NCBI GenBank assembly: GCA_963720465.1 | Contig: OY970393.1 | Location: 672,001-736,000, forward strand | Origin: Methanobacteriota archaeon | Lineage (GTDB): Archaea > Halobacteriota > Bog-38 > Methanoflorentales > Methanoflorentaceae | Direction: 5' to 3' | Length of the DNA: 64,000 bases | In this document: in pieces, positions 38,800-64,000 of the stretch | Layout of the letters: each line of letters starts with the position of its first letter | Position numbering within the stretch: position 1 is the stretch's first letter | Translations under genes and position numbers: made by a program | The notes under the pieces: model-generated | What the model saw: the letters and a program-made list of their open reading frames with translations, nothing else | The model's database searches: none | What the model was told of the DNA's origin: nothing

Positions 38800-38857
38800 T
38801 GCTAAAGCACTCGCCTTCGTACGGCGGAGGTCGCGGGTTCGAATCCGACCGAGCGCA
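38800..38857 (+). repeat. Degenerate tRNA-Val 3'-half (att-like relic) at core/accessory boundary
   Basis: CGCC-TTCGTAC-GGCGG-AGGTC-GCGGG-TTCGAAT-CCGAC-CGAGCGCA; no D-arm or 5' acceptor strand. Confidence 0.75.
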
Positions 38858-46012: not shown

Positions 46013-46321
46013 CTAGGCCTGCATCGCCGCAGCTGCCTTCTTTCCAGCTTCCATCGACTGGTCGACGCTGAGTATGGGGAAAACTTCAAACTCTATGAGC
46101 GGCATCCGCGTGAGCAAGATTGCGAAAATCTCTGATTCGCTTAACTCGCTAATCGCGTAGCCTTCCCGTCCGTTGCTGAACTGCCCCCAGTCAGTATATT
46201 TGCCCGCGCTCAAGTCAGCCTTTATCATTTCGAGAAATCGCGACATGAGCTTCACAACCTCTTGCGGTGTATCGGGGGCTTTCGCGGTGTTTACCCACCA
46301 CTTAATAAAGAATTTGGTCAT
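46013..46321 (-). CDS. Small DUF3303-like (dimeric alpha-beta barrel) protein
   Basis: KFFIKW...DWGQF.NG..GYAI...FEVFPILS; SD GGAGGTGA, ATG 46321. Confidence 0.72.
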   Translation of the reverse strand: MTKFFIKWWVNTAKAPDTPQEVVKLMSRFLEMIKADLSAGKYTDWGQFSNGREGYAISELSESEIFAILLTRMPLIEFEVFPILSVDQSMEAGKKAAAAMQA

Positions 46322-46325
46322 ATCT

Positions 46326-46438
46326 TTCACCTCCTTTCGCGTTGGCGGCGGTGGTAGTGACCGCCGTTTTTTTCTAAAACATGTAAAAAGGCACTCTAAG
46401 GAAATAAATGTTGTTGTTACAGGCGCTTGTCACGGCGA
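46326..46438 (-). promoter_or_regulatory. Conserved upstream leader, copy 1 (TATA-like box, GC hairpin, SD)
   Basis: Aligns over ~110 nt with 47253-47360; hairpin CGGCGGT/ACCGCCG. Confidence 0.7.
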
Positions 46439-46516: not shown

Positions 46517-46849
46517 CTACCGCTTCATCGCTGCCATCTGCTCTGCTTGGGCTTTGAGAACCTGCCGTGCGATTGCCTTTCCTGTCTCGTAGTCTATGAT
46601 TTCGTGCACTTCAAGCAGAATCCACGGGAAGTCCGCGAACGCCGTTATGAACACGTCTTTGACTTCGCCACTGAAAATTGCGTATCCTGAGGTTCCGTTT
46701 GGAAAAAGGCCAAACTCAAGTACGAGGCCACTCTTTATTTTTTTGTCCACCTCTGCGAACACCATCTCAAACCACTGCGTAGCGGCAGCAGGGTCCGTCG
46801 GCCACGGCCCGCTCGGGTTGAATCGCCAAAGGCCCATATACTTCGCCAT
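46517..46849 (-). CDS. Small DUF3303-like protein (paralog of 46013)
   Basis: KYMGLW...EFGLFPNGTSGYAIF...PWILLEVHEII. Confidence 0.72.
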   Translation of the reverse strand: MAKYMGLWRFNPSGPWPTDPAAATQWFEMVFAEVDKKIKSGLVLEFGLFPNGTSGYAIFSGEVKDVFITAFADFPWILLEVHEIIDYETGKAIARQVLKAQAEQMAAMKR

Positions 46850-46933
46850 ATTTTTTACCTCGTTTTATGTTGGCGACTGACAGTCAGCGCCGCCTTTTGA
46901 CGGTTCATTCCGTCATGAGAAAGATACAAGCCA

Positions 46934-47248
46934 TTAGGCCTGCACCAGCACCTGTGCCAATTCTTCCCTTGTTATGCACGGCCACAAGTCCCAATCGTAC
47001 ATATCGAGCACTTTCTTCATCGGCGGTTCCATACAGTATGCCATTAACGCCTCAAAATTTGGAGCATCGTACACGATAACTTGAAAGTGCTTGGGATGCA
47101 CAGTCCACGAACCCACTATTTTGATTCCGTGCTTCTTTGCGAGGTCTTCCATCTGGGGCATGCCTTCGAGCACCGCTTTCCTGTAGTACTCGTTGTGCGC
47201 GGCACATTCTGCTGCACCGTGTCTAATAATCGACAAAAATAACGCCAT
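46934..47248 (-). CDS. Small DUF3303/GYD-like protein
   Basis: FL.I.RH...C..H...KKHGIKIVGSW...H....VYDAPNFE; ATG 47248 after SD. Confidence 0.72.
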   Translation of the reverse strand: MALFLSIIRHGAAECAAHNEYYRKAVLEGMPQMEDLAKKHGIKIVGSWTVHPKHFQVIVYDAPNFEALMAYCMEPPMKKVLDMYDWDLWPCITREELAQVLVQA

Positions 47249-47252
47249 TTCG

Positions 47253-47360
47253 TTCACCTCCTTTCGCGTTGGCGGCGGTAGTTTCCGCCGTTTTTCTAAA
47301 GCGCATAAAAGGGTACTCTAGGGGTATAAGTGTTGGTGTAACAAGCTCTCGTCACGCCGA
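47253..47360 (-). promoter_or_regulatory. Conserved upstream leader, copy 2
   Basis: Homologous to 46326-46438; hairpin CGGCGG/CCGCCG with a different loop. Confidence 0.7.
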
Positions 47361-49199: not shown

Positions 49200-49352
49200 C
49201 TATTCTTTATACGCCATTTCGAGAAGCGCCCTCACTACGTCCTCTTGGGTCTGGACTTTCCCCCTCTTGGCGCTCAATGTGGCGCGGTACTCTTCGAAAT
49301 CAGCATGCGTCTTCTTGCTTACGCTTATGGTAGCTCGGTCGCCGCGTTTCAT
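49200..49352 (-). CDS. Ribbon-helix-helix (CopG-like) protein, 50 aa
   Basis: Hand translation MKRGDRATISVSKKTHADFEEYRATLSAKRGKVQTQEDVVRALLEMAYKE; beta-helix-helix pattern. Confidence 0.7.
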   Translation of the reverse strand: MKRGDRATISVSKKTHADFEEYRATLSAKRGKVQTQEDVVRALLEMAYKE

Positions 49353-49675
49353 CTAAGGTTCATACAATTCATAATTGACAAATAGTTTGCTGGTTTCTAG
49401 CATAGCGGAGATGAATCAAAATGGTAACCAGCACATCATCTGATTTCAGCCAACTACCCGTCTTGCAGGAAATCTACCAAGGTACAATCAGGGCGCACCA
49501 CGCAAAGGCGGGATACGACTACCCGACAATCCGCCTTCCGTTCACGTTCTCAGGGCTTATAGGGCTGCCGACGTGCATCTACCAAAGCGTTCACGAAGGG
49601 GCGCTTGCGTTCCTTGTCGTTATCTCATCGGGTTCTCGACGCGGACGCGACAACTCAGTTTCAAACGCTGACCAA

Positions 49676-49721
49676 CGCCTTCACACGGCGGAGGTCGGGA
49701 GTTCAAATCTCCCCGGGCCCA
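49676..49721 (+). repeat. Intact 3' half of tRNA-Val(CAC) (att core)
   Basis: CGCC-TTCACAC-GGCG-GAGGTC-GGGAG-TTCAAAT-CTCCC-CGGGCCC-A; upstream is coding sequence, not a D-arm. Confidence 0.88.
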
Positions 49722-49769
49722 TCTTATTTTACCAATCGGACGCGGTAATGATGGCGGACGACGAAGAAG

Positions 49770-49803
49770 AAAAGTTGCCAACTTCCAAAAAGTTGCCAAC
49801 TTC
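49770..49803 (+). repeat. 18-nt-period tandem duplication AAAAGTTGCCAACTTC x2
   Basis: Direct read; in frame (KLPTS x2). Confidence 0.85.
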
Positions 49804-50948
49804 TGAAGGCGGCGAAGAAACAAGGCAGAAGGAAAACCCGAAACAGTCATCGTCGATTATGGCGGCGGGATTATCGTTCATCACAGACTGCCCGACGGGA
49901 GTCTCGATGTAGGCCATGAATTTGACGATGCCGAGCTGGTTCCAGACGGAGCCATTCCCGATGAAGACGAGCGGTGCATAAAGACGGTCGACATTGACAC
50001 GTTAATAGCCATTCAAGATATTTTAGAGGCAGATAAAAAACCAATTTTCGGCGATGAGGGCGATGCAAAACCGCGTGCGAGCGGCACTTCAGGCGAGTTC
50101 ATACTTCACTTCTTTCAATCTGAACTGACCAATTTCGTGGCGGGTCGAAAAGTTGGCCTCGCTAAAAAGTCTACGGACTGGATTGACCGGGCATCAAACT
50201 TGCTGTGGGAATCGACAAAAGGCGAGGTATCGAGCCGCACGCTAACAGCACTGCGTGAACAAGTTCTTGCTAAATACAAATCTGCAGATTCACATTCTAA
50301 AGTCCTCAACTTCGCTGTTAGCTTTCTAAAGTTTTTGGCGAAAACAAAAATGGAGCCGCGATACGCATCCTTCGACGCATACTTGGAAATGCCCAAAGCG
50401 GTGAAAGAGCGGAAAAGCATAACGAGCCGAATCGTCACGAAAGACGACATCGAAAACATTCAGATATATCAAACAGGCTGAAAATAAGGGAAAAATTGAC
50501 TCTAAACGGTCAGCTCAGTATTCAGCTTTTATCACTTTGGCGCATTCACCGGTCAGCAGTTTAGCGGAGTGAAAAACAGATCGGCGCGCGGGCGCCGTCG
50601 ACCCCTTCCACTTTAAGCAGCACTCTTTCCGTCAACAAATCGTAGTTTCATTTTTCTTGCGATAGTAATCTGCCCGCTTCTGTTCATTGCCACAAACAAG
50701 CATTTCAGGAAGAAGTTTACGACACAAATACTGCCCTTCTGCTCGCACGGCACGAGCCTCTTTCCGGCATCGAAGCCCGTGAAGGCCAACGTGTCTTCGA
50801 TATCTTCGCACGCCTTCTGGCTCTTATTTCAAGTATGGAATCGTGCGCCACTCTTTGTTGACGATGAGGAGCCAGCATCATCCTAATCAGTCAAGAGGAG
50901 GCGACCGACACTCATATATATTTAAACGTTCCTCTAGCGTGACTACGT

Positions 50949-51512
50949 ATGAGCATACTCGACTGGATCATTATCGCGATCATTATCGTTATTATCATCA
51001 TTGTCCTCCTCTGGGCAGTGCGGAGCTACAATCGGTTTGTAAGGCTCAAAAAAGCGTCTGAAACAACCCTCGCCCAGACCCAGGTCGCCATGAAAAAGCG
51101 GCTCGACCTGATAGGCGAGCTAGTCGACGTGGTCAAGAGCTACGCGCAGTTCGAAAAGGACACCCTCACCAAGGTCACGGAAATGCGCGCGAGCGTCGGG
51201 AACGCAGCGCCAAGCGACCTCAACAAGGTCGAAGCCGAGACCCGACCGATGTTAGGCAATTTGTTTGCTGTTGCCGAGAACTACCCTGACCTCAAAACCT
51301 CGACGGAGGTTACGAACCTTATGGGAGCGGTGCGCACGAACGAGGACGACATCGCCCGCCAGCGCTACACGTTCAACAACATCGCTCAAGAGTTCAACAC
51401 CAGGCGCGAAACTATCCCGTCGAGCCTCATCGGCCGGTTGATGCATCTCGCGCCGATCGATTATCTCAAATTCGAAGAAGCGATCGAAACCCCGCCGACC
51501 ACAACATTCTAG
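50949..51512 (+). CDS. lemA: LemA family protein
   Basis: N-terminal TM, YNRFV, KKRLDLI..LV..VKSYA.FEK.TL, AVAENYPDLK. Confidence 0.93.
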   Translation: MSILDWIIIAIIIVIIIIVLLWAVRSYNRFVRLKKASETTLAQTQVAMKKRLDLIGELVDVVKSYAQFEKDTLTKVTEMRASVGNAAPSDLNKVEAETRPMLGNLFAVAENYPDLKTSTEVTNLMGAVRTNEDDIARQRYTFNNIAQEFNTRRETIPSSLIGRLMHLAPIDYLKFEEAIETPPTTTF

Positions 51513-51521
51513 GAGGGTTCC

Positions 51522-53342
51522 ATGAGCGAAACGCGGCAACTCGCCACTATCGTCGGGATAGGCCTTGTCCTTGCCATTATAGCGCTCATTATCGTTAGTG
51601 TAGCGGGCCCCGCCACCGCCGGGAGCCTGTCCGTGAGCAACTATGACGCGACACTGACGGCGAACGGAACGCTCACCGAGAAGATCACGTACAACGTCGC
51701 GGCCAGCGACACTTACCGCTCACTCAACCGCTGGTGGGAGGCGCCGGTTACGAACAACAGCTCGCAGCCGTACATCCGGCTGACGTCCATCGCGCCGGCG
51801 GCCGGCACGGAAGCGTACCTCGTGAACGCCAGCGGCCACGTTACTGTATGGGCGAACGATTACAATGCGTTATCTGCGATTGAGAGCAATGCCAATAACA
51901 ATGAGGCGGGAATGTACAACGGGAACTACTACGACGCCGGCCTGTACACGGGCACCTACACGTGGGTCGTCCACCCGCCGCTCGAGTACGACGCTGCGGC
52001 AAACCTGACGCACCTCGACCTGCTCCTTGCTGGCGACTCACACGTCACGTACGATAACGTCAGAATCACGATTCCCGCAAACAACATCACGTGGGTGTAC
52101 GCATACCCGCCTACGCTTTACACCGAAAAGGTCAACGACACATACGTCATTACCGGCAGTTTAGCAGCAAACGAAAACCTCGCAGTCGAGGAGCTCGGAA
52201 CACCCGCCGCGTTCAGCCAGCTTAACGGCTTTCAGACGAATGTGTCCAACGTGCAGGGACTGACAGCGGCCGCGGCGTCCCAATATGACTCCGTCTATTC
52301 CTTGGCAAACATCCTCAACGAACTGGGCAGAATTGCGGTCATCGCAGTCCCGCTCCTATTAGTCGCGCTCTACGTGGGCTTCAGTCGGGAAAAGTCGTTT
52401 ACCGTGCCCGACTACCTGAGCACGATGCCGGAAATGACGCTCAAGCCGTGGCAGGTAAACCTCCTATTCAAGGCTGATCCGCTCGATTTCGACAAGGACG
52501 GGTACTACGCCACGCTCCTCGAGCTGCACCGGCGCAAGGTCATTGAAATCTCGGGAGAAGGCGCAAACATAAAAATCCGGATCCTCTCCCGTGACGTCTC
52601 AGATCCATACGAGCAGCGTGTACTCGCGTTTATTGATGCGATCTCTGCAGATGGCTTCCTTGACTCCGAATATATCACAAGCGTTCAGCAGCAGGCGTTG
52701 ACCGACGAGAGCGCTAAAAATACCGCCGCCTCGTGGAGGAAATCGATCAACGAGGTGACAAATACAGTCGATCCGTCAATCGCGCGTGACTACGTCACCT
52801 CAGGCAAACGCAGGTTTCGGCTTCCGTTGCTGATCAGTGGCGCGCTCGGCGTCTTTTCGATCCTTTTTTACGTTTCTTACCCGGACGTGCAGTACATCTT
52901 AGGCGCAGCCGCGATCTTCTGGATCGTCGTCTTCGTACAGTTCCTCGTCGCGCGCTTTGCCCCGTCAACGCTCTTCGGGCGCTGGAAAGGCGATCATTAC
53001 AAGGAGAAGCTCGAGTGGGATTCGTTCAACCACTTCCTCAAGGACATGGCGAAAATTGGCAAGTCCCCGCCCAAGGACGTGTCGATATGGGGCGACTGGC
53101 TCATCTACGGAACCGCGCTGGGCGATGGCCAAGCGGTGGAAGAGGCGATGCAGAAGTTTAACGTCAAGCTGGTAGATGCTGGAATGCCGGACAGGATGTG
53201 GAGTATGAACACGGCAATGGACACGACATTCTATACTATGATGACCTTTGGCGGCGACTCCGGCGGCGACTCCGGCGGCGGCTCCAGCGACGACTTCGGC
53301 GGCGACAGCGGCTTCGGCGGCGGCGGAGCGGGGGGATGGTAA
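51522..53342 (+). CDS. DUF2207 membrane protein
   Basis: Follows lemA; ectodomain, TMs, W..F..FL, W..WLIYGTALG, Gly-rich GGGGAGGW tail. Confidence 0.88.
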   Translation: MSETRQLATIVGIGLVLAIIALIIVSVAGPATAGSLSVSNYDATLTANGTLTEKITYNVAASDTYRSLNRWWEAPVTNNSSQPYIRLTSIAPAAGTEAYLVNASGHVTVWANDYNALSAIESNANNNEAGMYNGNYYDAGLYTGTYTWVVHPPLEYDAAANLTHLDLLLAGDSHVTYDNVRITIPANNITWVYAYPPTLYTEKVNDTYVITGSLAANENLAVEELGTPAAFSQLNGFQTNVSNVQGLTAAAASQYDSVYSLANILNELGRIAVIAVPLLLVALYVGFSREKSFTVPDYLSTMPEMTLKPWQVNLLFKADPLDFDKDGYYATLLELHRRKVIEISGEGANIKIRILSRDVSDPYEQRVLAFIDAISADGFLDSEYITSVQQQALTDESAKNTAASWRKSINEVTNTVDPSIARDYVTSGKRRFRLPLLISGALGVFSILFYVSYPDVQYILGAAAIFWIVVFVQFLVARFAPSTLFGRWKGDHYKEKLEWDSFNHFLKDMAKIGKSPPKDVSIWGDWLIYGTALGDGQAVEEAMQKFNVKLVDAGMPDRMWSMNTAMDTTFYTMMTFGGDSGGDSGGGSSDDFGGDSGFGGGGAGGW

Positions 53343-53495
53343 GCCCATTGAGCGGCGTGTTATGGGAGTCATCGCCCGTTTCAGACGGAGGTCACATCAA
53401 GCGCCCTGTTAGAGCAGTGGCTGCTCATTTAGATAAAACGGCGATTATTGTAGTAGGTCTGTACTCGCTATATACGAATTATTCCCTTTGTTAGG

Positions 53496-53756
53496 TCAGA
53501 ACGTTGGTTGCGATCTGTATTTCACCGATAACGCTGTTATTAGTGCCCACGCCCCCGCATCGATAACGCCGCCAAGTACCGCTAACGGTAGACTGAGTGT
53601 CGCGTACACGCAAGTTAACACGACGAGAAAAGAGCACGTTGTCGCGCTGGAGAGCAGGTTCATACCTGTCTTTTCCCTATGCATGTCGCGTATTTGAGGG
53701 ATAAGAAGGAACCCGAAGACAAGGCTACAGAGGAGGATTACCGTGTCCTGCCACAT
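53496..53756 (-). CDS. Small 3-TM protein (PQ-loop/SemiSWEET-like)
   Basis: LIPQI motif after first TM; SD AGGAG. Confidence 0.6.
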   Translation of the reverse strand: MWQDTVILLCSLVFGFLLIPQIRDMHREKTGMNLLSSATTCSFLVVLTCVYATLSLPLAVLGGVIDAGAWALITALSVKYRSQPTF

Positions 53757-54074
53757 CGTTGTTATTTATCTCCTATTGCCATAAGCGCGGGTTTATTAAC
53801 ACGTTAAGGATTAAGGCCGCTATGCGTGAATCCTCTTTTTTCTCCTCTTTGCTTTCGTATTGCTTCGGTTGGGTTTAGCTTCTGAATCGGGTTTTTCGTC
53901 ATCCTTGTTACTTTTTCAAGATAAGCGGTTGGTTGTGGTCTTAACGAGTGCTAATCGAGACAGGACCAAGCAGCCGCACACTTATAGACTTGATATGTGG
54001 CGATGTTCGACAGAGATCCGGAGAAGTTCGCTTAAGCCCTGGATCGCGCCAGACTACCGAACTGCCAGCCGCGC

Positions 54075-54395
54075 TTAGAAAGTAACGATTTTGTCGCACT
54101 CCTTCACTATTTCGTACAAATCTGCAAGCGTTGACATTGGACACGTTTCCGAACTCGTGGATTGGCGGATTTTGAGGCAGGTGCCACAGGCAAATATAGC
54201 GCCGCCACCCTCAACGAAAGAGCGAATCTGCTCCGTGACCTTGAACGTGTCAGTATCAAGGGTTTCACTCTCTACACCTTTACCACTGAGGAATGCCTTC
54301 ACCTCGTCACCCGCTTTCAAGGCGTAGTTTCCGAACCGGAAGGCGTTCCATACGGTCTCTGGATCATTTGAATAGACGATCAATCCTAGTTTCAC
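54075..54395 (-). CDS. DsrE family protein
   Basis: NDPETVWNAFRFGN...FLSGKGVE...ACGTCL...CPMST; start GTG 54395 overlapping upstream stop. Confidence 0.88.
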   Translation of the reverse strand: MKLGLIVYSNDPETVWNAFRFGNYALKAGDEVKAFLSGKGVESETLDTDTFKVTEQIRSFVEGGGAIFACGTCLKIRQSTSSETCPMSTLADLYEIVKECDKIVTF

Positions 54396-55039
54396 GTTTT
54401 TTCCTCCCTGTATCCAGTAATGAGCGCAAACCCCCCCTGCCCGTGCCCCTCTTTGACCGGATCGACGGCGGTCATCTCTTCGGTAAACGCGAAGAGCGTT
54501 TGACACGTTCGTATAGCGCTGAATCCCACCGTTTGCAGCCACGCGATCACCTGCGTTACTGAATGAAAGTGGGCGTATCGATAGAACACGCCCTTCTGCT
54601 TTCGCCGTTCATAGGACTCCCCGAGAGGGGTCTCGCGGTCAATCATCCCGATTACGATGCGCCCTCCGGGTACAAGAACTCTGTTCGCTTCTCGAAGGGC
54701 CTGCTCTGGGTCGTCGGTAAAACAAAGCGTGGTAACCATCACGACAAAATCAAACGACTCATCGTCGAACGGGAGCTCTTCTGCGCTCGCCTCGTAGACG
54801 TCTATGCCTCGTTGCCGAGCTATCGATGCCATAGCGTGCGCCGGTTCCACCCCGACTTTGATGCCAACTCGAGAAGCAACGCGTCCTGTCCCGACGCCTA
54901 CATCCAACCCTTTGCCACCCCGCGGGAGAAGGCTTCGCATTGCTACCACTTCTGACTCGTAGGCATAGGCGTGAGTCTCAAACCACCGATCGTATTCACG
55001 AGCGTGCTTCTCAAAGACGCGGATGTTATAATCTGACAT
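54392..55039 (-). CDS. Class I SAM-dependent methyltransferase
   Basis: LDVGVGTG, AEELPF...SFD, RVLVPGG. Confidence 0.92.
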   Translation of the reverse strand: MSDYNIRVFEKHAREYDRWFETHAYAYESEVVAMRSLLPRGGKGLDVGVGTGRVASRVGIKVGVEPAHAMASIARQRGIDVYEASAEELPFDDESFDFVVMVTTLCFTDDPEQALREANRVLVPGGRIVIGMIDRETPLGESYERRKQKGVFYRYAHFHSVTQVIAWLQTVGFSAIRTCQTLFAFTEEMTAVDPVKEGHGQGGFALITGYREEKT

Positions 55040-55110
55040 AAGCTATATGTCTGTGTACTAATGCGAAGATTAAATTATAACGCACCAGGCGCTCCCTCTA
55101 GCGTGTAACC

Positions 55111-55347
55111 ATGGAAATCGACATCAACATCGTAGCTCACGATCTCCTGTGGAGGCGTATGTCTATTGGAAGAAAGCAGGAATACGTCAAGAGTTGGGGC
55201 GCTTTAAAGGACGAGATAATTGAGAAGGAGATGGCACGACTTATTGACGACGGGTATGCCGTTCAGCACGACAACGTTCTCGAATTAACGTCAGAGGGCA
55301 ACGGCCTCTACAAAAGAATGACGAGCCGGTGCCCCAAGACGGAGTAG
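55111..55347 (+). CDS. Hypothetical protein (wHTH-like end LELTSEG)
   Basis: 78-aa ORF. Confidence 0.5.
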   Translation: MEIDINIVAHDLLWRRMSIGRKQEYVKSWGALKDEIIEKEMARLIDDGYAVQHDNVLELTSEGNGLYKRMTSRCPKTE

Positions 55348-55352
55348 CGCAA

Positions 55353-55637
55353 ATGAAAGCGTACGACGTGAAGACGTTGCGCCCGTGCCGAAGCGGCGGA
55401 ATAATTGTAGAGGGACATTTCAGCAATGAATTTGCCATGCACGAGTTATGTTCATTATTACACGGTGTAGCAAAGTGCTCGGAAAAATTAGGGGTCGCAC
55501 GGTTTTCCCACGAAGGGTGTGACATTACTATCTACAGAACTGGGCGAGTTGACGTGCACGGGGTTACTTCTGAAGAAGAGGCAATTGAATTTATCAACGA
55601 CATAAAACTCATTGTCGAAGATGCTTTTGTCGATTAG
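55353..55637 (+). CDS. Hypothetical protein (TBP-like beta-sheet pattern)
   Basis: RPCRSG...ITIYRTGRVDVHG..SEEEA. Confidence 0.6.
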   Translation: MKAYDVKTLRPCRSGGIIVEGHFSNEFAMHELCSLLHGVAKCSEKLGVARFSHEGCDITIYRTGRVDVHGVTSEEEAIEFINDIKLIVEDAFVD

Positions 55638-55648
55638 TTCTCTCTAGA

Positions 55649-55935
55649 CTAGATCAGCTTTTCAATGATTTCAACCGCATCCCGGACAAACGCCGGACAT
55701 AGTGCCATGACGACTTTGTTCTTTTTTGCCTCAGCAACTTGTTGCGGGTCTGCCAGGTTGTATCCAAGCAGTCCTGTGCATTTCACTGAGCCATTACGCA
55801 GCTTAAATTGCCTGAGAAATTCGCCGACTACCGCATAGGTCTTTTCTTTTGCAGCTTTGTCTTTCGCCGTGATCCTGCCGTATCGCAGCCCGATGACCAT
55901 AATCGCGCCTGAGACAGCGCCGCAGATGTCATCTG
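55649..55935 (-). pseudogene. C-GCAxxG-C-C redox protein, 5'-truncated
   Basis: ICGAVSGAIMVIGL...F...NGSVKC..LLG...CP.FV; N-terminal half missing. Confidence 0.78.
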
Positions 55936-56309
55936 GTGTAGGTTATTCCAGCACCAAACCCCTGCGAGATCCGAAGAGCCAGAAGAGCCAGATCCGGATC
56001 GAGCCCGAAGTCCTGTGCAAAGACCGAAAGCACAGCCTGTGAACAGCTGAAACCGTGCTGAAAAAGAGTGACCGCCTCATCTGCTTTCGACATATGCAGC
56101 AATCATGCAAGGACAGCAATAATGATTCCGCTCGCGCTAGAACCACAGCGTTGCTCGCTAACGATCCCTAAAGCCGTTGCCAATGCCCTCCCCAAACCTC
56201 ACAGCAGAATGGCACATCAGGGCAGAGGATATTTCTGAATTTGCACGCCGAGCGAGGTAAAAGAGTGGACAATCACCTCATGTCGACTCTTTTATTGGCA
56301 ATACCTTGA

Positions 56310-56984
56310 CTAGATCATCCCCGAGCCAAAGTTACTGCCCATGTGCTCCTGCATTTCCTGCTGCATGTCGGTGCGTGTGTTCGCGTTCGGCCCGTAGCCC
56401 ATGTACGGCCCCATGCCATAGCCATTTCCGCTAAGCCTGTGCATATCGTTCCACATGTCCCGCCACATGTTTTGCTGGTACGGTGCTTGCCCGACAGCAC
56501 CGCCGGTGATGACCATGCAGTAGTAAGGCATGAGCGGTGAGCTGCCATATTCCACGGCCGCCCCTCTCTTGGCACTCGCGTTAAACCCTGACCACGCCGA
56601 CGCATTCTGCTGCACTGCAGCGTACCCTTGCCCCATAAACAATGTTCTCATCGAAACGAACTGTGCTTGCGCCATTGATGCATTATTGCACGCTTGGACG
56701 CTCACGGTGTAGGTGCCGTTGCTATCGCTCACCGTACCGTTGTACACTGCAATCCCTGCTTGTGGACTGGGTTGCAGTGAAAACGGCGTTACCACCGTGA
56801 AGTTTAGCTGTTGCATCGTGGTCGCGAGGTACTGAGCGATGGCTTGGTCTTGTGCAGCCGAGGTTGTCGTGCTGGTGCTTGGAGTCGCCGTAGGGGAAGA
56901 CGTCGTAGGGCTCGTGCAGCCCGCAGCGAGAACAGCTGCGAGCATCACTAGCGCTAACGCGCCTGCCACAAACGATTTTTTCAT
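56310..56984 (-). CDS. Secreted lipoprotein with Met/Gly-rich C-terminus
   Basis: Lipobox AAGC, Thr/Ser linker, MWRDMW...GYGMGPYMG tail. Confidence 0.75.
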   Translation of the reverse strand: MKKSFVAGALALVMLAAVLAAGCTSPTTSSPTATPSTSTTTSAAQDQAIAQYLATTMQQLNFTVVTPFSLQPSPQAGIAVYNGTVSDSNGTYTVSVQACNNASMAQAQFVSMRTLFMGQGYAAVQQNASAWSGFNASAKRGAAVEYGSSPLMPYYCMVITGGAVGQAPYQQNMWRDMWNDMHRLSGNGYGMGPYMGYGPNANTRTDMQQEMQEHMGSNFGSGMI

Positions 56985-57298
56985 TGTAAAACCTCGTAGT
57001 TACTCATAATGATGCCGGTAATGTATAGCTCGGAGCTTTAAGCATTGGGTGTATCATGCACCGCGCTGGAGCTGAGTATGGCTTGAAACCGCAGGAATAT
57101 TGTTTCGTATCGAATAGGGAAGCGTATGCCACGTCCGGCATTGAGGTTTAAGCGTGAACAGCCAAACTCCCTTTGCGAAACGCTTTGCGTACTCATTTGT
57201 GCTTGGTCGCAGAAGGCTAATCATAACGATTAAGGTGCAGCGACGACTTTGCACGTGTTATGCTAGCCACTGAACATTACCGATGCTACGATGTTACG

Positions 57299-57562
57299 AT
57301 GCCAAACCACGAGCTGTTGGAAGTCCATCACTCCAAAATCTCGCTTCACCACGCAAAAGCAGATTATACCTACCCAACGATACGATTACCACATACATTC
57401 TCAGCGCTTGCAGGACTATCGACGCAAATCTTTCAAACTGTGCACAAAGGAGCGCTTGTCTTTCTTGTGGTCGTGTCATCTGCAAACGTTTCCAGAAACA
57501 CTTTCGAGCGATCTAAAAACAGCGGTGCTTGCGCTAAAGCCTCCGTCTTCACACGGCGTTAA
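57299..57562 (+). CDS. AbrB-like integrase N-fragment homolog, copy 2, ending in a tRNA-Val anticodon arm
   Basis: HHAKADYTYPTIRLP..FS.LAGL.T.IFQ.VH.GAL.FLVV, close homolog of 49421; last codons overlap CGTC-TTCACAC-GGCG (57544-57558). Confidence 0.75.
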   Translation: MPNHELLEVHHSKISLHHAKADYTYPTIRLPHTFSALAGLSTQIFQTVHKGALVFLVVVSSANVSRNTFERSKNSGACAKASVFTRR

Positions 57563-58367
57563 TTTAGACGATAAAAACTCTCCGGAATTCCCTGCTGAGG
57601 CTCACTGTTAAGGGCTTTCACCTTCGTGGCGATCTGTCCCGTGCCTTTCAGCATCCTGAAGCGTTGCAGACCCTCCACGACAATGTGATTCTCCCAGAAA
57701 AGGAGCTCGCGCTTAAGTCTTGATATTGTCAACAAGAAATCTCATTATATGAGAGACTACCTTCCCTGACTGTCCTCACAGATTTCGAGCCCAGAGATCG
57801 CAAGCTTTTCCGCGTCGTATGCGCACATCACCTGCTGCAACGCGTCAATGATCAGGCGAAGAGGCGGGGGTGCCCTCTTCTGCGATCGGGGGGCTATGCG
57901 GCCCTGCTACAATCGATGCGACCATTACTGCAAGGTCTGGGCAAGCTGCTCTTTCAACTCAACGGCAAGCGTTCGTAAATACGATCCTTCGAGCCGTTCG
58001 GCTCTGGCGAGGCAAGCTGCACGCCGCTCCGTAGATTACCACGTACCTTAGTTGGGCGTCTCGCCGAGAGCGTCCCACCATCTCTATCAGCTTTCCAGCG
58101 GTACTGTGTGAATGTAGGCAGCAAAGAGGTTGTAGAGCGCTTGTTTCTTGTCGCTTGTAACGGTCTCGGAATATATTGCTTGCACAAGGCTTGAATTTGC
58201 ACTTCAGGTGATATTTGAAATGCAAGAACGTGTTGAAAGGAAAAGGAAAGAGGTGAAGAGGATACCGAACACCCCTTCACAATCCCCACAAGGCCAGTAT
58301 CGCTCTGATCAGTGCTGCATCGCCAGTAACCGCCTATGCTGCCTTCTTCATTACAATGCGTTACGGC

Positions 58368-58772
58368 TTAGAGTATGTGTAGCCCAAGGGAAAAGACACC
58401 TGGGGATTCGAGCAGACTCGGATTGAGCGTACCCGTGAGGACTAGACAATCGCCCTTACTGGGAACGCCAGAGGCGATGAACGTAGCACCAGTGCTACCG
58501 GACCGGGCGTATTGCAGCAAGTATGTCGTGCCGGGTTTCATCCCGTGGTCATAGCAGACGCACACGAAGTGACCGTTATAGTTGTCAACGATTATTATGC
58601 CGCCAACTTTGCCATCTGGAGCGATAACGGTGAAAATGGAAATGGGCGATTTGCTCACCTGCACTCCTTTGGGGGCAACCGGCACAGCACCCGCAGGGAT
58701 CGCACCAATGCTGGTTACCAGCAGCAGGCACGCGAGGCTTGCCAGTACTACAGCTCTCATATTAATTCTCAT
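58368..58772 (-). CDS. Secreted hypothetical protein
   Basis: Signal peptide; SD GAGGTGA. Confidence 0.65.
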   Translation of the reverse strand: MRINMRAVVLASLACLLLVTSIGAIPAGAVPVAPKGVQVSKSPISIFTVIAPDGKVGGIIIVDNYNGHFVCVCYDHGMKPGTTYLLQYARSGSTGATFIASGVPSKGDCLVLTGTLNPSLLESPGVFSLGLHIL

Positions 58773-58898
58773 AACTTCACCTCGATTCGGGTTTTTAAAA
58801 CCGATTAGCGTAGGCTATCATAAGATAAAAAATTGCCCTTTTTGACACGCTTTGTGAGAGTGCCCGACGCGCGAGATTCAGCGTAAATCGCAACGGTT

Positions 58899-59153
58899 AT
58901 GCGCACACGGGAGATAATGCAGCGCATGCAATCGATCTGCACGCATAAGATAAGCATCCAAAGCTCAAAGCCATCTCATGCCTGCCCCATTGTCAGGCAC
59001 CCACCTGAGTTTGGCGAACTGGCGGGAACACGCGCAGAGATCTATCAAACAAGCTATGACGATGGGATTGCTTTTTTAGTGAAGATCATCGATCGTTCTA
59101 AAAAGAAGCTCAGCAAGGGCTCCAATTTCGAAAAGGAGCCTTCACACTGCTGA
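58899..59153 (+). CDS. AbrB-like integrase N-fragment homolog, copy 3 (diverged)
   Basis: HKISIQSSK...PIVR.P.EF..LAG..AEIYQT...G.AFLV.I; runs into a tRNA half. Confidence 0.65.
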   Translation: MRTREIMQRMQSICTHKISIQSSKPSHACPIVRHPPEFGELAGTRAEIYQTSYDDGIAFLVKIIDRSKKKLSKGSNFEKEPSHC

Positions 59154-59182
59154 GGTCGCCGATTCGAATCCGGCCGAGCCCA
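59137..59182 (+). repeat. Diverged 3' half of tRNA-Val(CAC) (att core)
   Basis: AGCC-TTCACAC-TGCT-GAGGTC-GCCGA-TTCGAAT-CCGGC-CGAGCCC-A. Confidence 0.82.
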
Positions 59183-59488
59183 TCGTTCTTTTGTCAATCG
59201 GAAACATTTAAGCCGTTTACTAGGCATTTGTCCAGTACGAGAATAATGGCAAAAAAGAAGCACAAGAAGGACAAAAAGTCGCACAACCCATCCTTTGCGT
59301 GTTCGAGAAAACGTGACTCGATCCTTAGACGGCACTACGTAGGCTTGTCGCGTCAACGTGACAGGTGCTTTTCAGCACTATTGTCGAAAAAAGCAAAGAA
59401 AATCAGAAGAACTATGCACATTGAGGGCGTGTCTGCAACCGAGTGCTGCCGTTAGCTATCGGAATTCTTAAAGAACATAAGATTTGCA

Positions 59489-60283
59489 ATGCAAAAAAGT
59501 AGCGTCGTGATAATAGCCGTTATAGCGCTCATAGCAGGCGCTACAACAGCGTATGCATTCACCTCAGGCCTTCAATCTCAGACGCTGCATGGCAGCTCGC
59601 AACAGGGCGTGCTCTTTCAAGCGTCGACATATAGCGCCCTACAAGCAGGCGACTATAATGGAAATGTGACTCTTAAAGATTTACGAGCCCACGGCGATTT
59701 TGGCTTGGGCACCTTTGACGCCCTCGACGGCGAGATGATCCTCTTGAACGGCACATTCTATCAGATCAAATCGGACGGCAGTGTCTCTGTCGCCAACGAT
59801 TCGATGAAGACTCCTTTTGCAGACGTGACGTCATTCGAGCCTACTAGTCAAATGGTACTCGCCCCCAATAGCCCCTTGAACTATTCTGAGCTGCAGTTGT
59901 ACTTAGACGGTCAACTGCCCACGAAAAACATCTTCTACGCGGTAAAAATAACAGCAGAATGTTCCTATCTCGAAGTTCGGAGCCCGCCGAAACAGGCTAT
60001 GCCGTATCTGCCGCTTTCCGAGGCGTTAAAAAACGAGTCGATCTTTGAACTGCACAACGTCACAGGAACATTTGTGGGCTTTTTCTCTCCGCAGTACGCA
60101 AACGGAACCTGCGTTCCCGGTTGGCACTTTCATTTTCTCACCGCTGATGATGAACATGGCGGGCACGTATTAGACGCGACACTTCAAAATGCAACGATAC
60201 AAATAGATGACTTGACGACGCTCTCTGTAGCGCTCCCCGACACAACCTCCTTTTACGCGCTGAATCTGACGAGCAACGCCTGA
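59489..60283 (+). CDS. budA: Alpha-acetolactate decarboxylase with N-terminal signal peptide
   Basis: LFQAST..AL..G.Y.G, HGDFGLGTF..LDGEMI, TPFA, GWHFHF...GGHVLD. Confidence 0.9.
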   Translation: MQKSSVVIIAVIALIAGATTAYAFTSGLQSQTLHGSSQQGVLFQASTYSALQAGDYNGNVTLKDLRAHGDFGLGTFDALDGEMILLNGTFYQIKSDGSVSVANDSMKTPFADVTSFEPTSQMVLAPNSPLNYSELQLYLDGQLPTKNIFYAVKITAECSYLEVRSPPKQAMPYLPLSEALKNESIFELHNVTGTFVGFFSPQYANGTCVPGWHFHFLTADDEHGGHVLDATLQNATIQIDDLTTLSVALPDTTSFYALNLTSNA

Positions 60284-60560
60284 TTGAACGAAACGGAAAG
60301 CTGGGTCTGTCTCACGGCTTATTAGCGTAGTGTGCCCAGCAAGATTATGTTGCCAACGGAGTTAGATTATGAGGTCAACGTTGCCCCATACTGCATATGT
60401 CCTCCACGTGCTCTGGCAGCGGATGCCGATAATTCGTCCGCGCTACCCCCCGTCCCAGTGCGTGAGAAGATAGGCGCGGTGCGACTCATTCCGCCCGATG
60501 AGGTCACCGTGATGCTCGGCAATTTCTCGTAGATCTGCTGTGACAAAGTAGCGGCGCGCT

Positions 60561-61634
60561 CTAATTGACCGAAACGCTCAGGTTGTACTGCTGTGCCGCC
60601 TTTCGTAGCACGATGTCCTGTAACCCGCCCACAGTCGGAATACCAACGAGCTTGCCCTTTAGATCTGCGATTGAACGTATACCTCCGTTAGGTTTCACAA
60701 CGATCGCCGATCCGCCGTGATTAACCTCTGATATGATTTGGATCTTCGCATTGTCGTTTACCCGTGCTTCTATCGTAGGGACTGCGCCTACGTACCCCGC
60801 GTCAAGCGCACCCGTTTTGAGGTCTTTCATCATGGCCACGCCGTTGGGATACTCTTTGAAGTGAACCGTTAATCCGCAGGCGCTGTAATATCCCTGGTTC
60901 TGAGCAACAATACTTGCGAGCCTTGTGCTGTCTGCGGTTAAGAATCCAACGTTGATAGTGGAGTTTACGACCGGTGGTTTCCAGTTCGGGTCTCTCGAAA
61001 GGTTATCATTCACCTCTTTCGAGTAATTCTGTATGACGAAGCTGTTAAAGAACTGACTTTCGTTTGCATACCCTAGATCCGTAACGCTTTTGTTTAGGTA
61101 TGACGCGTTGTTTAGCTCATTGTAGCAGTCCCTGATTGAGTTAGGATTATTATCACCGACGTATTGTACGTTCTTCAAGGAATCATTCGCTGCCTGCAAT
61201 GAGACGCCTGAATCGTTAGCTATGTACTGCACGACCGTGTCGTGGTTGTTCGGATCGTTTATGAAGTCTGTTCCTTTGACGTGAGCCCAAATCAGGCATA
61301 ACAGCACATTTCGATTGAGCTTCTGCAAAGAGCTGTTTGGTATGGCGATCACGTCACCAACGTGTTGCGGCCAAATCGCATCCGAATTTGCGAGGATAAC
61401 ACCCGTTCCGTTGAGTTGTGCCTGCGAGACGATGGGCTCCCAAGCGACAAAGGCATCAATCTTCCCTGCCTCTAATTGATTTGACATATCTTTCACATTC
61501 AAGACGGTTTCATGCACGGCCCCGCTAACCGAGGCCGTTTGATTCGAGGCTGTTTGGCTTGTGCATCCTGCGGTTAGCACTGCCGTGGCGAGGGATACAA
61601 TAACAAGAACCATTAACTGCTGCTTTCGCGTCAT
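60561..61634 (-). CDS. SsuA/NMT1-type ABC substrate-binding lipoprotein, circularly permuted
   Basis: Lipobox TAGC; IDAFVAWEP half precedes INVGFL...DLKGKLVGIP...QDIVLR half. Confidence 0.85.
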   Translation of the reverse strand: MTRKQQLMVLVIVSLATAVLTAGCTSQTASNQTASVSGAVHETVLNVKDMSNQLEAGKIDAFVAWEPIVSQAQLNGTGVILANSDAIWPQHVGDVIAIPNSSLQKLNRNVLLCLIWAHVKGTDFINDPNNHDTVVQYIANDSGVSLQAANDSLKNVQYVGDNNPNSIRDCYNELNNASYLNKSVTDLGYANESQFFNSFVIQNYSKEVNDNLSRDPNWKPPVVNSTINVGFLTADSTRLASIVAQNQGYYSACGLTVHFKEYPNGVAMMKDLKTGALDAGYVGAVPTIEARVNDNAKIQIISEVNHGGSAIVVKPNGGIRSIADLKGKLVGIPTVGGLQDIVLRKAAQQYNLSVSVN

Positions 61635-61993
61635 TATATCCTCCTTCTTGAATCAACTTTGATACACGTTTTTCAGGCGTGCGTAACGGCGCTTGGGTCA
61701 TTCGACTTAAGAAAGCATAAACTTGTACTATCTGATCTCACAAAGGCGAATCGCTAACCTACAAGTGAGATGCGATTAAGAGCGTCCACCAGATAAAGTT
61801 CCTTTTCATGGCCTCATACAATCGTCCGCGCCGCTATTTACTAAATTAAATAGCCTACCTATTCGTCTATAAATGATAAATGTTGCAGCATTTGAGCGCG
61901 TTTCTAGGGAAGGGAGCGGCAAACGCCCCTTATTTTGAATTCCTGTGATGCTTGCAGTGCCGTGAAGGTTTCCGACTTATGGAAGCCCCATGA

Positions 61994-62150
61994 TTATTTC
62001 AAGTCCTTCTGCTTCTGGGAACGTTTTAAGGTCTCTACGTTTACCGTTCCGAAGCCGCCGAGCATTAACAGGGCTTTTGCCATTGCCTCGTCGCTGGAGG
62101 CCTCAGCAATTACATCCCTATCGTACCTTCCGAAGGTAAAGTAGATGGGT
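61994..62150 (-). pseudogene. GYD-domain 3' fragment, duplicate of 63266-63559
   Basis: YFTFGRYD...AEA..DEAM.KALLMLGGFGTV.VETLK; nucleotide similarity to ~63285-63440. Confidence 0.8.
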
Positions 62151-62217
62151 CTGAGTAGTCCAATTGCTAAGAACACACAGCACAATATTTTTTTAAGTCG
62201 AACCCCCACCATTAACT

Positions 62218-63049
62218 GTGATCTGCGAAATAGGCGATCTTAACATTTATTATGAGACTCGCGGAGAAGGCACTCCGCTGCTTGCGATCCACGGGTATTA
62301 CGTTGATCAACCACGTTATGACTGGCTGCCTCGAACCGATCTTTTCACGTCGCCCGGGATGGAAGCGCATTTACATCGACTTACCGGGCATGGGCCGCAC
62401 CCGTGCTCCCAGTTGGTTGCACAGCGCAGATCAGATGCTAGACGCAATCGTCAAGTTCTGTGAAAACATTCTTCCTGAGGGCCAGTTCCTAGTCGCAGGT
62501 GAATCTTACGGAGGTTATCTTGCCCGAGGCTTTGTCCGTTCCCTACCCGAGCGTCTCAGCGGAGTTCTTCTCATCTGCCCCGTTATTATAGCCGATCGAA
62601 ACCGGCGCGACCTCCCTCCTCGGCAGGTGTTCGCCAAGGATGAACCTTATTTGGCGAGTGTCGCATCGAGTGAGCAAAAGGATTGGCTTGAGCGCGCGCT
62701 AGCGGTGCAAGACAAGCGGCGATGGGAGCGTTTTACTCAGGACACCATAGGAATGAACGCGAAAGATGAGGCGTTTATCAAGCGATTTGAAACCTCCCCC
62801 GGTTATAGCTTTTCCTTTGATGTGGATCAGCTACGGCATCCATTCGACCGACCTGCACTCATCCTTGTTGGCCGCCAAGACGCGTTTGTCGGGTATCGTG
62901 ACTCGCTGAAACTGGTTGCGAATTATTCCCGAGGGACTTTCGCGGTGCTTGATAGGGCCGGGCACGGCTTGGAAGTCGAACAAGAAACTGTATTTAACTG
63001 TTTAGTCAATGAGTTGCTCGACCGGGTGGAAGAAGCCCAGCGCTCCTGA
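62218..63049 (+). pseudogene. Alpha/beta hydrolase, frameshifted near 62310
   Basis: IYYETRGEGTPLLAIHGY in the first frame; YIDLPGMG, GESYGG, GRQD, AGH in the second. Confidence 0.85.
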
Positions 63050-63265
63050 GATGCGTTAGCGATCTGTGCAAAAATAGAGATATCTACTAAGATATCGTGT
63101 TCTGTTCAGAGAGACTGGAGATATGCATGGGGCGGGTTGGAAGATTGGAGTGATAGCTTCGTAGAGGATATCTTCTTCGCAACAGACGGCAGATCAGCCA
63201 CCTAATTGATGTGCTTATTGAGAAGTTCGGGTGAATCAAGAGAGACGCTCAGCGATGTGCGAGAA

Positions 63266-63559
63266 TTAAGGAAGCTCCTTGATTATCTCTAACCCTTCTT
63301 TTTCCGGAAACGCCTTTAAGGTCTCTACGCTCACCGTTCCGAAGCCACCGAGCATGAGCAGCGCTTTTCCCATTGCCTCGTCACCGGGAGCTTCAGCAAT
63401 CACTACTTTGTCGTACCTTCCGAAGGTAAAGTAGAGGGCTTTCAGCTCTCCGTTAACAGACGTTAATATGTTACGAAGGCGTTCAATTCGTTGGGCATCG
63501 TCCTTTATCTGCTGTATTCCCGCTTGTGTCCATTTCATAAGCATAATGTAGCTAGGCAT
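63266..63559 (-). CDS. GYD domain protein
   Basis: Y..LMKWT..G...IKD...R...GE...YFTFGRYD...EAP...TLKAF. Confidence 0.88.
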   Translation of the reverse strand: MPSYIMLMKWTQAGIQQIKDDAQRIERLRNILTSVNGELKALYFTFGRYDKVVIAEAPGDEAMGKALLMLGGFGTVSVETLKAFPEKEGLEIIKELP

Positions 63560-63839
63560 AGTTGTGTTACCTCCTTTTCGTTACAAGGTGGCAAAAGGCG
63601 CCATCTATTTAAAGCCATATATTGCTTGGCACTTTTTGTAATAAAACTGGCAGGAAGTAAGTACTCACAATCCTGGGGTGACTGCCAGAACATAGTTACA
63701 ATAGGGGATAAGCGTCACGATGCAGCTATGGTTAGCAGGTTTTGCTCCTTACGGCTGCCGGTTTGTGTTGAGACCAATCCACGCTGGCCTCGCAATGCAT
63801 ATAGACGACACACGCTCACAAAATCAAGGAATTTCTGAC

Positions 63840-63951
63840 TCTCTACCATCTTCTCTCGCGTACAGCCAGCATAGTGTGTCGCCGTAGCAAATTGCATCGC
63901 ATCTGGAACTCGTTTGTCCGTGTGCTCGTCAATAGCTTCTGGCCGTGGCAA
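63840..63951 (-). pseudogene. Possible PIN/VapC C-terminal remnant
   Basis: RVPDAMQFATA...GC resembles the PIN 'DA+++AtA' motif. Confidence 0.4.
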
Positions 63952-64000
63952 ACGTCTGTCGCTCCCCGCAAATCACAACAATTAAGTGTCGGTATCCATT

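Follow-up and report, generated by a model that had tools for sequence, protein, structure and literature searches.

A Fossil Integrase Gene Read Through a tRNA-Val Half in an Uncultured Archaeon

Organization of the locus

The subject of this study is a decayed integrase gene in a window of 64,000 nucleotides (genome positions 672001–736000) from an archaeon of the Methanobacteriota, whose genome is a single contig of 2.31 Mb (GenBank assembly GCA_963720465.1, contig OY970393.1). The 3′ half of a tRNA-Val gene, which we regard as the attachment site (att), lies inside the reading frame of this gene, between a conserved N-terminal domain and a tyrosine recombinase (Table 1). The parts of the gene before and after att are referred to as int(N) and int(C). 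Positions are those of the window unless marked as genome coordinates, the prefix c denotes the opposite strand, and homologous loci and proteins are cited by our L and P numbers.

The forward-strand open reading frame (ORF) 49421..49912 (163 aa, ATG start, containing ...NADQRLHTAEVGSSNLPGPILFYQSDAVMMADDEEEK...) runs from the N-terminal domain through the tRNA-like stretch, which it translates as RLHTAEVGSSNLPGP, into LFYQSDAVMMADDEEEKLPTSKKLPTS. Its translation confirms the proposal of a first-pass annotation, made from the letters of the DNA, that the frame crosses the tRNA half and continues into the linker. A second frame, open from 49807 to 50478 and closed by a stop at 50479–50481, translates as ETVIVDYGGG...KDDIENI. 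The peptides RYIKQAE..QYSAFI and FGAFTGQ are both found at the locus, the latter (50536–50556) being reached by two more frame changes. The first-pass annotation had joined these pieces by a single shift near 49810–49830, into the frame open from 49807, and two later ones, and all three could be located. Compared with in-frame homologues (L151, L155, L156 and L139; alignment A4), the first consists of two extra bases within 49804–49839, and tblastn searches with P0101 and P0109 switch frame in the same interval. The other two lie near 50457–50463 and 50533–50536.

Similarity to integrases ceases, as had also been noticed beforehand, at the codon of the catalytic arginine of box I. The tblastn alignments end at FGAFTGQ, where homologues go on as TGQR. 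Inactivation by indels had been proposed together with a deletion of the 3′ part of the gene; the indels are there, but the 3′ part is displaced rather than deleted. Alignments with L124 and L128 halt at 50557/50558 and resume on the same strand at genome 740248–740645, with 84% and 96% identity, and the L128 alignment runs on in register through another 0.9 kb of element backbone. The interruption amounts to 17,690 bp, with ~40–45 nt lost at the joint. The displaced 3′ piece, in which DKIRMENYVPLHP is found, lies 4.2 kb past the end of the window and has a stop and a frameshift of its own. The locus is a pseudogene, a fossil without present function.

The stretch 49300–50700 is identical in contigs from four public runs, at 12–25x depth; no RNA data set was listed as containing it. 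The frameshifts are not slips of one assembly, because the contigs of the four runs show no difference; the runs belong to one study, possibly the source of the window DNA, so that their agreement is not independent support.

Table 1. Features of the integrase locus and of its surroundings in the window.
Feature	Position	Strand	Evidence or remark
Small divergent gene, 50 aa	49200..49352	-	Part of int(N) end module
Int(N): ATG, conserved N domain (49460-49636), low-complexity spacer	49421..49675	+	N-domain hidden Markov model (HMM), E 5.7e-33
att: tRNA-Val(CAC) 3′ part, in frame as RLHTAEVGSSNLPGP	49676..49721	+	nhmmer E 8e-13
11-nt T-rich spacer, conserved CAATCGG, internal ATG ATG (49748-49753)	49722..49753	+	Related loci
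Two exact 16-nt direct repeats AAAAGTTGCCAACTTC	49770-49785, 49788-49803	+	2 matches in window
Frameshift 1, two extra bases	49804..49839	+	Alignment A4, tblastn
Acidic linker, D+E 24%	49840..50127	+	Homologous to linkers of P0101, P0109, P0017
Tyrosine recombinase core-binding domain	50128..50456	+	C-HMM 40-226, E 6.3e-63
Start of catalytic domain, frameshifts 2 and 3, box I FGAFTGQ, break point	50457..50558	+	tblastn, L124/L128 alignments
First 13.4 kb of the 17,690-bp interrupting block	50559..64000	.	Pfam; further int relics
Left-most tRNA-Val half of the array	38811..38856	+	nhmmer E 3e-9
Second junction: divergent N domain (58920-59096), tRNA-Val half (59138-59182), start of linker	58920..59182	+	

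The tRNA-Val half

The tRNA-like stretch is the 3′ part of a tRNA-Val(CAC), from the anticodon stem (beginning at 49675 or 49676) through the discriminator base at 49721. It comprises the anticodon arm CGCC/TTCACAC/GGCG, the perfectly paired T arm GGGAG/TTCAAAT/CTCCC and the acceptor strand CGGGCCC-A, and was detected with a profile built from the 3′ parts of the three tRNA-Val genes of the genome. A 29-nt pattern of the tRNA half occurs once in the window, with none expected from 100 shuffles. The first-pass annotation had called this a perfect tRNA-Val half. It is indeed well formed and perfectly paired, though no copy of the host gene: identity to the host's own tRNA-Val(CAC) is limited to 22 nt of the anticodon arm (49676–49697), and the T arm and acceptor differ. 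At up to one mismatch, the foreign T arm was found in none of the 23 other genomes of the class. Besides those within tRNA genes, the host genome contains eleven tRNA-Val halves.

Run X2, which samples the same community, has a 434-nt contig that matches 49680–49722 with four differences between unrelated flanks; this contig may represent the tRNA-Val of another organism near the donor of the foreign T arm. Several ARAGORN tRNA calls with introns of 488–1148 nt appear artefactual, and the one that was checked (genome 747219–747795) ends on an integrase-linked half at 747751–747795. An ATG inside tRNA-Val (..GGTTATGACGTCGCC..; e.g. genome c191891–191964) shares its frame with int(C) in 22 of the 120 best homologues, which as called proteins begin MTSP(L/S)HGG..RAH. 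As this share is below chance phase, such starts are probably a by-product of gene calling.

Identity of the recombinase

At E≤1e-3, 435 of 7,999 scored proteins were matched; the best 120 are 290–513 aa long, and some are named integrase in their source. The closest homologue, P0095 (335 aa), is the gene L124 878..1885, with 81% identity over 187 aa in tblastn, shifted stretch included, while P0118 is 78% identical to the locus. In the core-binding region, amino acid identity to L124–L127 reaches 94%. Strong integrase homologues are thus present for 50137–50556, which had been taken for a tyrosine recombinase beforehand. In an alignment of 25 sequences (A1), R360, K392 and H397 are invariant and R452, H475 and Y485 nearly so; from their motif context (TGQR, DKxRM, HYxPL, LRKF, LTHG, HY) we take these columns to be catalytic.

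The fold was tested on the intact homologue L022 rather than on the window copy. Its AlphaFold2 (AF2) model has a predicted local distance difference test (pLDDT) score >90 across most of residues 140–400, and the equivalent of the core-binding region folds like the N-terminal domain of tyrosine recombinases. The best Foldseek matches in the PDB are lambda Int (1z1b, E 2.5e-4), XerA, Tn1549 Int, IntI and Cre, with probability 1.0, and all 16 listed matches with E≤0.001 are tyrosine recombinases, with 270–350 columns aligned. The Pfam family PF00589 matches 10 of 25 members at E≤0.1 (best E 8.6e-8), and among proteins scanned singly only P0069 (32.6 bits) passes its curated cut-off of 27.1 bits. 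Pfam and PHROGs returned nothing useful for the integrase pieces of the window, and PF00589 had no match to them. Judged by its predicted fold, the family is a tyrosine recombinase.

A scan of viral contigs with the core-binding part found no relative, a protein atlas had no usable match, and a literature search found no paper on integrases of this archaeal lineage. In the P0017 protein search, all 150 matches listed fall on an unrelated C-terminal repeat (residues 290–387).

Fused and split copies of the gene

An intact fused gene shows that one protein can comprise both the N domain and the recombinase. L022 (1435..2787, forward strand; the same place as L115), in a complete genome of the sister genus, is an uninterrupted ORF of 450 aa in which a short linker with 16 nt of the tRNA-Val anticodon arm lies between the N domain and the recombinase (C-HMM 97–406, E 2e-153). 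The first-pass annotation had considered that a stop might always part the small ORF from the recombinase; the intact L022 has no such stop. In a group selected for long frames (L035–L039, from five genomes), ORFs of 286–390 codons lead from the N domain via the half into the linker. A larger sample of 77 loci was selected by the N domain. Fifty of these have a Val half within 300 nt, followed in about 19–26 of the 50 by linker-type DNA, and the frame continues through att into the linker at 14 of 17 testable loci. Att is read in lineage-specific frames (..SPSHGGGRRFESGRAH.., ..AFTRRRSPVRIRPSP.. and ..RLHTAEVAGSNPAEP..), with matching single-base differences in the T-run.

Other loci show that integration cuts the gene of this family at att, so that one end of the element carries tRNA-Val::int(C) and the opposite end int(N)::half. 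In the host genome, a tRNA-Val(TAC) (genome c1560128–1560201) is followed by a 508-codon open frame that extends from inside the tRNA, via an acidic linker, up to the end of a recombinase that is intact (int(C), genome c1560186–1558663). An N domain with a tRNA-Val(TAC) half (genome c1533763–1533589) lies 26.5 kb away, followed by an older int(C) relic. Among 54 metagenomic loci selected by the core-binding domain, 15 have a full tRNA-Val directly before int(C), and the 120 best int(C) homologues all lack the N-domain motif. The host genome has four int(C) copies in which the core-binding and catalytic part is undamaged throughout.

Two of these loci have further peculiarities. The internal att of L022 is reduced to the 16 nt of the anticodon arm and ..AGCCCA, with the T arm lost, and both the acidic linker and the palindromes described below are missing; L022 may be a copy that is no longer able to split itself. 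The int(C) of L146 (2288–3867) is uninterrupted between the tRNA half and the end of the gene (C-HMM 3–406, one frame). The upstream N domain, in contrast, uses a different frame that meets a stop just ahead of the half, so that L146 is an out-of-frame joint beside a live-looking int(C).

The linker and its palindromes

Behind the end of the tRNA, the T-run and the motif CAATCGG are conserved at the DNA level in related loci. The 11-nt spacer keeps the ORF frame through att in phase with the linker, and has the same length in the closest intact relatives, L124–L127. The position of the internal start is occupied by M or V (ATG/GTG) in 12 of 15 distinct linkers. The linker of L124–L127 is frameshifted as well, by a different kind of shift, and yet their ORF of 335 aa is intact.

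Each of the two 16-nt repeats holds the inverted repeat AAGTTG-C-CAACTT, and together they encode KLPTS twice; none of 100 shuffles reached two copies. Paired GTTG-N(1-2)-CAAC palindromes, 18–23 nt apart, also occur in other loci. The corresponding peptide motif is present in at least one copy in 77 of 120 homologues and in at least two copies in 46. Its variants KLPTS, KLHNS and KLCNF all keep the palindrome, some being mutually reverse complementary when read off the codons; the DNA of the variants is displayed for a subset of the loci. This pattern of conservation points to a role of the palindromes at the DNA level.

The N domain and the N-end module

The N domain has invariant H, Y-P, G and L-A-F positions and about 30 paralogous copies in the host genome. 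It occurs in all 17 other genomes of the genus and in 21 of 23 of the family, and in none of 17 genomes from 12 other families of the phylum. In a search of 185,579 species genomes, the best 80 of 121 confirmed relatives stem almost wholly from metagenome-assembled genomes of peat, bog and fen. The labels of these loci are Methanomicrobia, Halobacteriota, Euryarchaeota or Methanobacteriota archaeon (e.g. isolates bog_38 and fen_3), and a few contigs are from bins bearing other labels. In these searches, uncultured peat archaea of one class were the sole source of the integrase family.

Neither Pfam nor PHROGs has a match to the N domain. Its AF2 model (pLDDT 77) has no Foldseek match in the PDB (best E 0.6), and the best VIA-align Z-score is 2.7. 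In the whole-protein model of L022 the domain is not predicted (pLDDT 30–40). A relation to AbrB/SpoVT, an idea prompted by the sequence pattern, was unsupported by AF2, Foldseek and VIA-align.

Copies of the 50-aa gene (c49352–49200), at 77–89% identity in tblastn, lie upstream of and divergent from the same N-domain subtype at L006/L047, L028/L048, L119, L017/L075, L008/L056 and L009; its sole Pfam match is weak (DUF2274, E 0.017). The N-end module recurs in six other places, where it fronts chromosomal flank or other types of linker. The N lineage of the window reads att in a rare frame, which is also used by L130 and L174.

The array of tRNA halves and the interrupting block

The att of the decayed gene belongs to a series of co-oriented forward-strand halves, located at 38811, 49676 and 59138 of the window and at genome 747751. 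The first of these immediately follows the core genes FttA and endonuclease III, a pair found in 17 of 18 genomes of the genus. Three relatives (L042, L043 and L045) have a half at the equivalent place, beyond which the DNA differs. The closest intact int(C) (L124–L127) occupies a half that is empty in the host genome (1991321–1991367). Left-over halves are insertion targets.

The block that interrupts the gene encodes, according to Pfam, LemA, DUF2207, a methyltransferase, a DsrE-like protein, acetolactate decarboxylase and others. The LemA-DUF2207 DNA is present in 3 of 18 genomes of the genus and is thus accessory. The two ends of the block showed no terminal repeats. A 648-nt stretch at its right edge (genome 739600–740247, part of a 389-aa minus-strand ORF) is duplicated at genome 1283609–1284256 with 95% identity, and the end of one copy coincides with the joint to the displaced 3′ piece of the integrase. 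The lack of terminal repeats and the 95% identical paralogue at the right edge make the block look like the outcome of a rearrangement, not of a clean insertion. The duplication suggests exchange between islands.

The genome also contains ~45 short integrase 3′-end fragments, which cover the last 20–110 aa, keep the natural stop and have unrelated downstream flanks. They form co-oriented arrays, 0.7–3 kb apart, beside intact int(C), and mid-gene copies are far fewer (~12). They are located at c42266–42153 and c60562–60458 of the window and, among other places, at genome 330–335.4, 364.8–387, 1538.9–1560 and 2292–2313 kb. A subset begins near one position, just ahead of GDLRKF, and one idea is that the fragments arise from a second recombination site inside the gene. 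A general location behind tRNA halves was rejected, as the T-loop motif lies within 260 nt upstream in 1 of 62 cases.

Origin of the locus

We are confident that the locus is the decayed, unsplit form of an integrase gene with att inside its ORF. The split loci and L022 support this conclusion, which the first-pass annotation had reached in terms of an attP-like or tandem-junction integrase with an acidic linker ahead of the core-binding domain. As to how the unsplit form came about, we favor on balance a tandem joint of two like elements at which an attP-type gene was formed again. In this family, an element integrating into a tRNA-Val gene, or into a left-over half, has its own gene cut at att. 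Between two such elements, att would link int(N) from the left one with int(C) from the right one, and a full-length attP-type gene would result. A live rebuilt gene would be expected to excise the elements, and the copy that persists would be one killed by the three frameshifts and by the 17.7-kb block at the box I arginine. The locus is read as a joint of two tandem elements because it lies inside the array of co-oriented halves, which starts at a conserved half next to core genes. The N lineage has a rare att frame and the C lineage has the matching 11-nt spacer; therefore, both elements probably bore the same type of integrase.

Several observations weigh against this account. No long repeats common to the two supposed elements and no recognisable replication or virion genes were found. 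The DNA between the halves is a mosaic, with an opposite-strand int fragment (c42266–42153) and the 17.7-kb block in the gene, and the limits of the elements are tentative. The foreign T arm is absent from the closest int(C) relatives. A single intact fused gene (L022, identical to L115) stands among roughly 100 loci with an N domain. No full-length fused protein was found among 218 candidates of 180–2000 aa, and the longest match of that protein search, P0017, is a fusion with unrelated sequence. Of the three Val-half junctions in the sample drawn with the core-binding domain (L130, L139 and L146), none is in frame. From the frame frequencies, we estimate that random pairing would leave ~0.4 of the junctions in frame; as the loci are moreover related to one another, the 14 in-frame loci out of 17 lend only moderate support.

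Other explanations start from the same DNA. The N-domain ORF could be a separate gene for a small DNA-binding or regulatory protein, with its 3′ tail overlapping att, and the integrase could start at the ATG at 49748. Integration would then part two intact genes without any "suicide", and the window would hold the unintegrated order, which later decayed. The internal start speaks for this arrangement, being M or V in 12 of 15 linkers and also in most of the called homologues. A promoter-like T-rich stretch ~20–25 nt upstream of the internal ATG would have the spacing of an archaeal TATA box. The lack of an N domain in all 120 int(C) homologues, the intact 335-aa ORF of L124–L127 (P0095) behind a frameshifted linker, the four host int(C) copies that are intact over the core-binding and catalytic part, and the different att frames of the N-domain ORFs point the same way. 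We nevertheless consider two separate genes unlikely. L022 extends without a break, as one ORF, from the N domain as far as the region of the catalytic tyrosine, 14 of 17 loci are continuous in frame, ORFs of 286–390 codons cross att, and the internal M is absent in 3 of 15 linkers. Variation in frame with compensating indels is described as known behavior of att-in-ORF integrases in PMC7253208.

It is also conceivable, if improbable, that the gene was never split, and that an element with a whole attP gene arrived by another route, for instance by homologous or illegitimate recombination between islands or by means of another integrase, and then decayed. The frame compatibility of N and C in a rare frame would fit such a history, as would the rearranged state of the region (the block in the gene and the paralogue at genome 1283609–1284256), the int fragments on both strands, and L022, an intact fused copy resident in a chromosome. 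The array of co-oriented halves, beginning at a conserved target half, argues against it, and so do the same N-end module ahead of unrelated downstream DNA elsewhere and the closest int(C) relatives, which sit at a bare half without an N part. Both histories predict an identical joint sequence and are hard to separate. An artefact, either a real tRNA-Leu gene with chance ORFs or a mis-assembly, is scarcely credible. ARAGORN does call a tRNA-Leu(caa) at 49630–49721. We regard this as a miscall, as there is no Rfam tRNA match at E≤1 across 40000–64000, and the likeness to a tRNA is limited to the part from the anticodon arm through the 3′ end, the 5′ part having no D arm. Both flanks have strong protein homologues, and the contigs of the four runs agree base for base, though perhaps not independently.

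A further idea, which we put forward as speculation with a small chance of being right, is that the site-in-gene design could be a built-in switch, not suicide, with both pieces usable after integration. These pieces would be an N-domain protein ending in the tRNA half and a recombinase without N domain made from the conserved internal start behind the T-rich stretch, and the GTTG-N-CAAC palindromes would be where the N domain binds, as putative arm or operator sites. With a second tandem insertion the enzyme would be rebuilt and excision would follow, hence only dead junctions would be kept. Left-over halves would be reusable landing pads that build accretion islands tens of kb long, and the many 3′-terminal int fragments would be a by-product of traffic at these pads.

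Other repeated sequences in the window

A direct repeat of 131 nt (62025–62155 and 63315–63445) has copies with 83% identity, 1290 nt apart. A 48-nt motif occurs three times (46308–46355, 46836–46883 and 47235–47282), at the 5′ ends of small minus-strand ORFs, and looks like the common start region of a small family of paralogous genes.

Comparison with known systems

How elements with a self-cutting integrase ever leave the chromosome is a known puzzle. Badel et al. (2020) predicted that tandem insertion rebuilds the gene, the case of partners with one type of integrase being drawn in their Fig. 8A, and reported tandem insertions as never observed among 73 integrases (PMC7253208). The present lineage offers many joints with a rebuilt gene, mostly dead and one intact. 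The lineage also has a family distinct in sequence, with an extra N-terminal domain and with repeated palindromes beside att. Among the questions that it opens are whether the N part serves integration, excision or control, whether the C part is active alone, and whether rebuilt genes trigger excision. In abundant uncultured peat archaea, left-over tRNA halves seed large and variable islands.

The closest parallels are the integrases of SSV1 and SSV2, pTN3 and pT26-2. They are described as having a tRNA 3′ part of ~45 nt inside the int ORF, and SSV-type integration as leaving int(N) and int(C) at opposite ends of the element (PMC8371274, PMC7253208). According to the same papers, att is translated in different frames in relatives of the SSV type, with compensating indels at the borders, and N/C hybrids arise (PMC8371274, PMC7253208); alternate att frames and indels at the att borders are likewise reported for integrases of the pT26-2 type (Badel et al. 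2020, PMC7253208). The SSV, pTN3-like and pT26-2-like families are said to be marked by the Pfam family PF16795 (Phage_integr_3; PMC8371274).

The peat family resembles the SSV type in having att in the ORF, in the split into int(C) and int(N), and in its variable att frames. It differs in that PF16795 matches none of 25 members (E≤0.1) and is likewise absent from five proteins scanned singly. The PDB holds the catalytic domain of the SSV1 integrase, and the A1 profile of the peat family gave no match at E≤1 against all PDB sequences. Further differences are an N domain without a match in Pfam, PHROGs or known folds, an acidic linker of 100–200 aa with paired palindromes between att and the core-binding domain, and hosts that are uncultured archaea of peat, fen and sediment metagenomes as opposed to hyperthermophiles. 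N::att::C junctions are also frequent in the peat family, at about 19–26 of 50 N::half loci. As far as the PF16795 and PDB profile comparisons can tell, the family is organized like the self-splitting integrases of the SSV type but is not a member of a described family.

With lambda Int the family shares an extra N-terminal domain in addition to the core-binding and catalytic domains, and the fold of the latter two matches lambda Int (1z1b). By analogy, the repeats near the core may be putative arm sites. In lambda, however, attP lies outside int and the gene stays whole after integration, and no fold similarity of the N domain of the peat family to solved structures was found. In classical tandem arrays at tRNA genes, as here, co-oriented tRNA 3′ halves mark successive insertions, and the newest target can be a left-over half. 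The arrangement differs from these arrays in that att lies inside the ORF, which restores an integrase gene at every internal joint.

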